Assembly (NCBI RefSeq): GCF_054482595.1
Contig: NZ_CM137008.1
Reading direction: 5' to 3' (one strand)
Length of the DNA stretch: 64,000 nucleotides
Shown in pieces: positions 54,562-55,434 of this stretch. Position 1 is the first letter of the stretch, and each line of letters begins with the position of its first letter. The notes under the pieces were generated by a model. The model did no database searches. It was given only the letters and a program-made list of their open reading frames with translations, and was not told the DNA's origin. Position numbers and translations under genes: made by a program.

Positions 54562-55434
54562 TTAGTTAATCAGCTTATCAATCTCGGCAAGGGGTAAATT
54601 TGCCATCTCTGCAACGTCTTCCCGAGACATTCCTTTATTCAGAAGACGCAGGACGAATTCTTGCCTTTCCTCCTGTCTTCCCCTCTCTTCAAACCACTGC
54701 GCCAGCGTCATCATAGACTCCCCTCCCGTTTCCCTGTCTCTCAGCACACCATAAAACAAATCCGCTTGTTCAGTATGACCGCGTTGCAGCATATAGTTTT
54801 GCATGGCAACTAACTGACTTCCGCTAGTGTACCCTTCGTCAATCAGCGTGACCAGTTGCTCCAGCAATAACATTAAGTCGCGCTGGCGAATATGCTTTTG
54901 CAGTAGTTCGAGAATCGCAATCCGCCGGTGCTGCATGATTTCGTCATCCGGTGTGATAGTGATATCCACCAGCGGAAAAGGACTGTTATAGACGCGTCGC
55001 GCCAGCTCCGGCGAGTAAAACATATCAAACCAGCACATTGAGAGCGGATAAGGTGTGGTCTCGCCCTGATAAAACAGTATCGGCACCACCAGCGGCAGCT
55101 TATCGTGATCCGCCTCCAGATGCCGGTGCATGGCAGCAATAGAATAACGCATCATGCGAAAGGCCATTTTCTTATCCGGCTTGCTTTGGTGTTCAATCAC
55201 AACATGCAGATAACCGGGATTGCCCTGCATTTGCACGGAATAGAGCACGTCCGTGCTGTGTCCTTTCAGGCTCTCTTCAATGAAACTCCCCGACTCTAAA
55301 TGAAGCGTGTTGAGGTCACAAAGTTCGCGTAATTCCACTGGCAAATGTATCTCCAGAAAGTCGCGAGCCGTCTCCGCATGCATTAAAAATTGTTTAAATA
55401 CCGCGTCATGCGGTGTAGTACTCGGTGCATCCAT
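54562..55434 (-). CDS. rpnC: recombination-promoting nuclease RpnC (YhgA-like / PD-(D/E)XK transposase_31 family)
   Basis: 290-aa ORF MDAPSTTPHDAVFKQFLMHAETARDFLEIHLP... characteristic YhgA-like N-terminus; located between panC and panD as yadD is in E. coli. Confidence 0.88.
   Translation of the reverse strand: MDAPSTTPHDAVFKQFLMHAETARDFLEIHLPVELRELCDLNTLHLESGSFIEESLKGHSTDVLYSVQMQGNPGYLHVVIEHQSKPDKKMAFRMMRYSIAAMHRHLEADHDKLPLVVPILFYQGETTPYPLSMCWFDMFYSPELARRVYNSPFPLVDITITPDDEIMQHRRIAILELLQKHIRQRDLMLLLEQLVTLIDEGYTSGSQLVAMQNYMLQRGHTEQADLFYGVLRDRETGGESMMTLAQWFEERGRQEERQEFVLRLLNKGMSREDVAEMANLPLAEIDKLIN

Follow-up and report, generated by a model that had tools for sequence, protein, structure and literature searches.

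The closest described system to the locus reported here is rpnC (yadD, b0132) of Escherichia coli K-12 MG1655. Overexpression of K-12 RpnC lowered the CFU by 59% and induced the SOS response late, and among the four K-12 paralogues that were active it had the weakest effect in toxicity and SOS assays (Kingston 2017, PMC5350276). A second product of the gene has also been documented. At the internal site of K-12 rpnC a retapamulin initiation peak was reported, together with locally raised synonymous-site conservation at yadD (Meydan 2019), and Onc112 and retapamulin profiles of K-12 rpnC as well as SPA-tagged RpnC-S on immunoblots were presented later (Zhong 2023, PMC10400941). According to the latter study, the small form RpnC-S stops the SOS response induced by the long form RpnC-L in a dinD-lacZ assay only if both carry the same number of repeats. 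It further describes that the small proteins of RpnA and RpnB relieve the toxicity of the long forms, and that purified RpnA-S forms a complex with RpnA-L and blocks its nuclease activity in vitro. Phage protection is described there for the plasmid homologue RpnP2 only. Start-site mutagenesis was performed on rpnA, rpnB, rpnP2 and one C. difficile rpn gene, and rpnC is not among the mutated genes named in the accessible text. As far as this text goes, the published experiments all used the K-12 allele, which encodes an RpnC-S of 60 aa, versus the 50-aa allele analysed here.

We analysed a stretch of 64,000 nt (NCBI RefSeq assembly GCF_054482595.1, contig NZ_CM137008.1), referred to as the window. 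Its rpnC gene is flanked by panC (53337..54188, plus strand) and panD (55708..56088, plus strand), and this gene order is the same as in K-12 MG1655 and other E. coli. RefSeq records of E. coli with 100% identical DNA name the gene 'recombination-promoting nuclease RpnC'. The product matches Pfam family PF04754 Transposase_31 with an E-value of 1.7e-87 and 292.7 bits (cut-off 21), and the Rpn family model TIGR01784 of NCBIfam with 268.8 bits (cut-off 52.1), while PADLOC offered no Rpn model matching this system. The residues D10, D62, E81 and Q83 and the PDDE motif (162-165) are kept and are invariant in an alignment of 16 homologues. The four single residues are equivalent to D11, D63, E82 and Q84 of RpnA, mutation of which abolished activity (Kingston 2017, PMC5350276). 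Since the residues essential in RpnA are all present, the long form of RpnC is expected to be an active nuclease. The features of the locus are listed in Table 1. The list of open reading frames also contains two plus-strand antisense ORFs that overlap rpnC, at 54600..54716 and 54661..54813.

Table 1. Features of the rpnC locus, with positions in the window.
Feature	Position	Strand	Evidence
rpnC full-length CDS (RpnC-L, 290 aa; toxic PD-(D/E)XK nuclease form)	54562..55434	-	ORF, Pfam, NCBIfam, RefSeq, synteny
Nuclease domain (Transposase_31 / PD-(D/E)XK), residues 7-207	54814..55416	-	Pfam match
Candidate internal promoter TGGTCA-17-TACACT, weak	54826..54854	-	lenient scan alone, 8/12 matches
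Internal Shine-Dalgarno GGGAGGGGAG; Gly-Gly-Glu codons GGA GGG GAG	54718..54727	-	sequence, anti-SD duplex energy, conservation
Internal in-frame start codons ATG ATG (Met241, Met242)	54709..54714	-	sequence, alignment to RpnA-S/RpnA
Predicted nested CDS for the RpnC-S antitoxin form (50 aa if begun at Met241, 49 aa if begun at Met242; plus stop)	54562..54714	-	translation, RpnA-S homology
Hypervariable segment of helix 1 with four-amino-acid repeats, RGRQ-EERQ (residues 251-258)	54661..54684	-	tail-length classes, K-12 alignment
Helices 2 and 3 of the tail, helix-turn-helix-like (GMSREDVAEMANLPLAEIDKLIN)	54565..54633	-	sub-threshold Pfam, homologues, Foldseek
Modest Shine-Dalgarno AAGGGA before rpnC-Ss	54498..54503	-	-5.3 kcal/mol; 4 nt before ATG at 54493
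rpnC-Ss, free-standing second tail copy (69 aa) with its own start codon	54284..54493	-	ORF; WP_000404127.1
GC-rich hairpin between the convergent ends of panC and rpnC/rpnC-Ss, likely a shared terminator	54193..54223		terminator-like, 12 pairs

We consider it very probable that rpnC of this strain constitutes the gene-within-a-gene toxin-antitoxin module RpnC-L/RpnC-S described in the literature and works by the same mechanism. A preliminary description of this DNA, made from the letters alone, had proposed that two adjoining in-frame ATGs inside rpnC start a C-terminal small protein of 50 residues, as is known for Rpn genes. This proposal is supported, and such a start is published for rpnC itself. 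Codons 241 and 242 of the 290 are both ATG (54714..54709), and the minus strand from 54714 to 54562 translates to MMTLAQWFEERGRQEERQEFVLRLLNKGMSREDVAEMANLPLAEIDKLIN (50 aa), followed by TAA. The Shine-Dalgarno (SD) sequence that had been pointed out is also present, as GAGGGGAG at 54725..54718, but the spacer, which had been given as 5 nt, is only 3 nt long (TCT). The GGAGG core at 54726..54722 lies 7 nt from the first ATG and the GGAG register 6 nt from the second one. Thus, the SD sequence is well placed for both.

The internal SD motif in rpnC exceeds chance. The anti-SD duplex energy, calculated for the 16 nt upstream against the 3' end of the 16S rRNA, is -10.8 kcal/mol. Of the 1970 ATGs that the window contains on its two strands, just 4 reach this value; the annotated rpnC start has only -4.2 kcal/mol. 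When the 463 internal ATGs that are in frame in the window's 53 ORFs with a length of 150 aa or more were ranked by SD pairing, the two ATGs of rpnC took the first and second places, and their site is stronger than 95% of the first ATGs of these 53 ORFs (5th percentile -8.2). Counting both strands (128 kb), the window contains five instances of the pattern GGAGG-N4-9-ATG, two of which stand in front of the first ATG of a long ORF (146 and 385 aa). A search of Rfam returned no relevant family near the internal start, and the predicted fold of a 101-nt segment around it was not unusual (z = -0.29), by which a known structured RNA or an unusual mRNA structure at this site was ruled out.

Judged from the sequence, RpnC-S may have a length of 49 aa, of 50 aa, or both, because the alignment with RpnA favours Met242, while the spacing of GGAGG and a homologue from Klebsiella michiganensis favour Met241. 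A start at the second ATG (54711..54709), resulting in 49 aa instead of 50 aa, has in our estimation a little less than an even chance. In a gap-free alignment over 39 residues, Met242 falls on Met1 of the crystallised RpnA-S (7TH0); it also corresponds to Met244 of RpnA (KESL-M-TIA), a start established by mutation, and to the N-terminal methionine of YpaA (MTIAERL). Moreover, the distance of 6 nt between GGAG and the second ATG is the same as in rpnA, and more distant homologues have a methionine at the position of Met242 alone (ERIMTIA, ETLMSIA). On the other hand, the 7 nt between the GGAGG core and the first ATG are an optimal spacing too, the K. michiganensis homologue in question retains only the methionine at position 241 (SMETL), and in one E. 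coli variant the pair is replaced by M-V (ATG GTG). It may also be that both ATGs serve as starts.

Based on the sequence identity with K-12 we infer that RpnC-S is expressed in this strain. An AF2 model of the protein, calculated from an alignment of 24 tails, contains helices at residues 4-26, 31-37 and 42-49 (mean pLDDT 79), which agrees with the published description of RpnA-S, in which three helices, the first of them long, form a compact bundle. A profile of the 24 tails matched this crystal structure in the PDB (7TH0, chain 7th0_A) with an E-value of 6.4e-8; single-sequence phmmer searches of the PDB with RpnC or the 50-aa peptide did not recover it. Foldseek comparison of the model with the PDB missed 7TH0 as well and yielded nothing significant (best E 0.43), only generic HTH domains. 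In Pfam, the tail matches DUF4351 and HTH_7 below the threshold, and homologues bear the precomputed family PF27070 HTH_Rpn_C.

These likenesses raise the question whether RpnC-S is chiefly a DNA-binding HTH regulator that might, for instance, autorepress the rpnC promoters, besides or instead of being an inhibitor of the nuclease. Beside HTH_7, sub-threshold matches to HTH_3 and HTH_23 would fit such a role, the structures most similar to the model are DNA-binding HTH domains of resolvase, KorB, TrpR and LuxR type, and a relatedness to HTH motifs in HHpred, as well as the presence of such motifs in many antitoxins, is mentioned in Zhong 2023. However, the fold and Pfam matches are all non-significant, and in the same work purified RpnA-S blocked the nuclease activity of RpnA-L in vitro and formed a complex with it. 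Neutralisation of RpnC was found there to need equal repeat numbers and therefore points to protein-protein pairing. Altogether, we regard a chiefly regulatory role as improbable.

It was also considered that the purine run could be a by-product of coding for Gly-Gly-Glu or an SD-like pause site, and the Met-Met an ordinary dipeptide, so that no separate protein would be made. SD-like runs without known function indeed precede in-frame ATGs elsewhere in the window, e.g. at 5783 and 19588 on the minus strand. Several observations nevertheless make this highly improbable. Between the window and rpnC of K-12 MG1655, in which the initiation peaks and the tagged protein were observed, there is no difference in the 36 nt that begin with the SD region (AGAGACAGGGAAACGGGAGGGGAGTCT) and end with ATGATG; over the upstream region and codons 1-242 (992 nt), the DNA identity to the K-12 gene is 97.8%. 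The SD sequence is built from rare glycine codons, GGA (9%) and GGG (14%) being the rarest ones for this amino acid in the long ORFs of the window, and only 3.3% of the usage-weighted synonymous recodings of ETGGES would pair equally well. Further, the SD sequence and ATG are kept across genera despite residue changes, and a free-standing homologue of exactly this segment exists as a gene of its own.

The conservation is broad. Of 5426 complete E. coli genomes, 5424 gave a match to a 66-nt query spanning the site; in 2076 the match was identical, and the most divergent E. coli alleles examined, including that of O157:H7, differ by single-base changes and keep GGAGG and both ATGs. The homologues from Salmonella, K. 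michiganensis, Superficieibacter and E. albertii retain an SD sequence and an ATG with energies between -9.4 and -11.4 kcal/mol. The homologues with retained SD share 57-89% protein identity and vary in the encoded residues (QGES, QEES, QGGS, GGES); the synonymous-recoding probabilities of the sites from the other genera and E. albertii are 0.03-0.19 each. That the small C-terminal protein is a proteolytic fragment of full-length RpnC, a route which immunoblots with C-terminal tags alone cannot separate from internal initiation, is hardly credible in view of the initiation-specific ribosome profiling peaks at the internal site (Meydan 2019; Zhong 2023), the loss of the small protein upon mutation of SD and ATG in rpnA and other genes, and the excess of the small over the long forms, with RpnA-L and RpnD-L undetected though their small forms were seen (Zhong 2023).

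With internal initiation at rpnC, the module would function as follows. Ribosomes that start at the annotated start with its weak SD sequence (55434) would produce the 290-aa PD-(D/E)XK nuclease RpnC-L, and those that start at the strong internal SD sequence with ATG-ATG (54727..54709) would produce a three-helix protein of 49-50 aa identical to the tail of RpnC-L. According to the literature, the internal initiation would take place mostly on a shorter and more abundant transcript from an intragenic promoter; dRNA-seq data with a transcription start within every rpn gene are cited in Zhong 2023. In our hands, a standard consensus scan detected no sigma-70 promoter inside rpnC, and the weak candidate in Table 1, whose putative -10 element occupies 54831..54826, is located approximately 110 nt upstream of the internal start. 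RpnC-S would pair via its long first helix with the matching tail of RpnC-L and thereby hold the nuclease inactive, and the number of four-residue repeats in this helix would determine the matching of S to L. If RpnC-L were set free, possibly upon phage infection, DNA damage would result. RpnC may have an antiphage role.

The repeats determine the length class of the allele. In tails of the E. coli type, the methionine and KGMSR are 26, 30, 34, 38, 42, 50, 58 or 62 aa apart and at no other distance, i.e. the length varies strictly in units of 4 aa. The tail in the window belongs to the shortest class (26 aa). When compared to the K-12 tail it shows, in the hypervariable segment, a clean gap of 24 nt, which corresponds to two repeats (KGIEKGIQ), and it lacks the last two codons; over the aligned part the identity is 91.8%. 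The layout of the MAFFT alignment had suggested that the K-12 tail could be a fusion with the second, free-standing copy of the tail, rpnC-Ss. This was rejected on the basis of the identities, since the K-12 tail is only 83.1% identical to rpnC-Ss of the window and 91.8% to the internal tail.

The second copy starts 68 nt downstream of rpnC and is 80-85% identical at the DNA level to the rpnC tail, as a diverged duplicate. Its homology to rpnC starts around codons 233-237 (RDRET versus RRET); the SD-ATGATG arrangement has been lost from it and a new upstream ATG is used instead. The hairpin downstream of it is kept in K-12 and E. albertii. Some RefSeq records annotate rpnC-Ss (WP_000404127.1, 'RpnC/YadD family protein'), and its occurrence in some strains is described in Zhong 2023 (PMC10400941). 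We found it, at a coverage of at least 80%, in 1554 of the 5426 complete E. coli genomes. The exact 69-aa protein is very common, and in nine of the ten places read it was partnered with the 290-aa RpnC. This combination of the two proteins is a stable haplotype that is very common.

A difference between the two tails concerns the first helix, measured from WFEE to xGMSR, which in the window comprises 16 residues in RpnC-S versus 24 in RpnC-Ss. The lengths are unequal in all seven distinct rpnC haplotypes of E. coli sampled, with S/Ss values of 16/24 (the window), 36/20 (two haplotypes), 32/22, 36/22, 36/26 and 44/32. RpnE-S and YpaA of K-12 are likewise unequal, by one KLEG repeat. As reported in Zhong 2023 (PMC10400941), the neutralisation of RpnC-L is lost already if the mismatch amounts to a single repeat. 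Together, the length mismatch and the finding on one extra repeat would therefore imply that RpnC-Ss is no simple spare antitoxin. In the commentary by Koonin the second copy figures simply as an antitoxin that has been decoupled, and the difference in helix length is absent from the accounts of the second copy in the commentary and in the accessible text of Zhong 2023. That RpnC-Ss is a length-mismatched, non-cognate module and not a redundant antitoxin for the resident nuclease is a tentative idea from a small sample, which we regard as rather unlikely. If it holds true, RpnC-Ss could be an alternative tail kept in store for the switching of tails by recombination, or else an inhibitor or decoy directed against a phage factor or another Rpn allele.

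The internal start in rpnC is real and already known (2019, 2023), and thus not new. The profiling and tagging experiments which the preliminary description had proposed as a check have already been performed on the K-12 allele. The value of the present observation lies mainly in annotation. In RefSeq records of this DNA, rpnC and the separate small gene downstream are annotated without a nested CDS for RpnC-S, and for this reason the functional antitoxin of the module is not visible in standard annotation. In addition, the window contributes a natural allele with the shortest tail, two repeats below K-12, and the co-resident second copy with another helix length could be used to test the rule that repeat numbers must match.

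Among the known systems, RpnC-L/RpnC-S of K-12 MG1655 occupies the same panC-panD locus and has a tail of the same family, and the Met-Met is found at the same codons in the K-12 gene (300 aa) and in the window. The differences lie in the length of RpnC-S (60 aa in K-12 versus 50 aa in the window), in substitutions in helix 1 (EFVLRLLN in the window, EFAQRLLS in K-12), and in the downstream copy rpnC-Ss, which is present in the window and missing from K-12. RpnA-L/RpnA-S (yhgA; PDB 7TH0) resembles the locus in having an in-frame internal start at an equivalent position (Met244 in RpnA, Met242 in RpnC), preceded at 6 nt by AAGGAG in rpnA and GGGGAG in rpnC, and the products from these methionines are both three-helix proteins of 49 aa. 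Yet RpnA-S and RpnC-S are only 23% identical, RpnA has a single methionine at the internal start where RpnC has two, and complex formation, nuclease inhibition and the crystal structure are evidence obtained for RpnA, not for RpnC.

The known counterpart for an rpn gene with a second, separate copy of its tail downstream is RpnE with YpaA (RpnE-Ss) in K-12. According to Zhong 2023 (PMC10400941), RpnE-Ss and rpnC-Ss arose independently. YpaA contains one extra KLEG repeat when compared to RpnE-S, and its gene starts at the conserved methionine of MTIA, 12 nt after rpnE, whereas rpnC-Ss lies at the larger distance from rpnC given above and, unlike ypaA, encodes an N-terminal extension of 11 residues (MEIKTRRETRQ) before TLAQWFEE. 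Expression of YpaA was demonstrated by tagging, while RpnC-Ss is predicted from its sequence. Outside the Rpn family, Cas10d/Cas11d and arcB share with rpnC the production of a shorter C-terminal product from the same ORF by means of an internal SD sequence and ATG. In those systems the products cooperate or have separate roles, whereas the short form of RpnC would act as a dominant-negative inhibitor, following the logic of a toxin-antitoxin pair.

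The tail of the nuclease gene rpnC, which encodes the internal small protein RpnC-S, is present a second time 3' of rpnC as the separate gene rpnC-Ss. Among complete E. coli genomes, about 29% carry this gene, which was already described (Zhong 2023). The Shine-Dalgarno-ATGATG arrangement of RpnC-S is gone from rpnC-Ss, which starts at a new ATG further upstream, so that RpnC-Ss has 11 extra N-terminal residues (MEIKTRRETRQ) ahead of TLAQWFEE. The spacer contains a direct repeat, the second copy of which leads into the rpnC-Ss Shine-Dalgarno sequence; this repeat may have been left behind by a duplication or may have a regulatory role. 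No report of rpnC-Ss expression was found.

Features of the rpnC-Ss region and other ATGs with Shine-Dalgarno sequences in the window
Feature	Position	Strand	Details
rpnC-Ss, free-standing RpnC tail copy	54284..54493	-	69 aa; spacer to rpnC, 54494..54561
10-nt direct repeat CCAGATAATT	54504..54513 and 54529..54538	-	two copies in the rpnC/rpnC-Ss spacer
GC-rich hairpin	54193..54223		12 bp; between the convergent panC and rpnC-Ss 3' ends
In-frame internal GGAGG-N8-ATG	19588	-	-10.3 kcal/mol; inside 385-aa ORF starting at 19996 (-)
In-frame internal ATG after AAGGGGG	5783	-	-10.5 kcal/mol; inside 450-aa ORF ending at 5538 (-)
23-aa ORF	18118	-	GGAGG Shine-Dalgarno 4 nt 5' of ATG

The hairpin is kept in K-12 and in E. 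albertii (L006), where an additional insert of approximately 100 nt adjoins it, and is likely a terminator shared by both convergent genes. In one genome (L028, GCA_900448515.1; region 1..593), rpnC is replaced by a pair of insertion-sequence transposase genes, whose products have HTH_Tnp_1 and rve domains, and rpnC-Ss, intact and identical, lies directly 3' of this pair. Thus, rpnC-Ss persists there without rpnC directly upstream.

Among the other ATGs, the one following AAGGGGG would yield an 81-aa C-terminal fragment of a 450-aa protein, which looks like a membrane protease, presumably RseP; this combination of Shine-Dalgarno sequence and ATG is probably incidental. Initiation at the GGAGG-preceded internal ATG, the second in-frame site of this kind beside that in rpnC, would yield a 249-aa C-terminal product beginning with MNLIQAEENTPALTEW. 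The gene of the surrounding 385-aa ORF does not appear as cdaR, sdaR or yaeG in the main text of Meydan 2019.

According to the published repeat-matching rule, RpnC-S neutralises the full-length RpnC-L only if the four-residue repeats in the first helix of the tail are equal in number (Zhong 2023). RpnC-S and the co-resident RpnC-Ss were compared in the window (54661..54684 against the rpnC-Ss gene, both on the minus strand) and in the loci L007, L009, L013, L015, L016 and L017, and their first helices were equal in length in none of these seven sampled haplotypes. Therefore, if the rule applies, RpnC-Ss would be a non-cognate second copy. In K-12 (locus L012), RpnE-S and YpaA, the free-standing copy of the RpnE tail, also differ, by one repeat.
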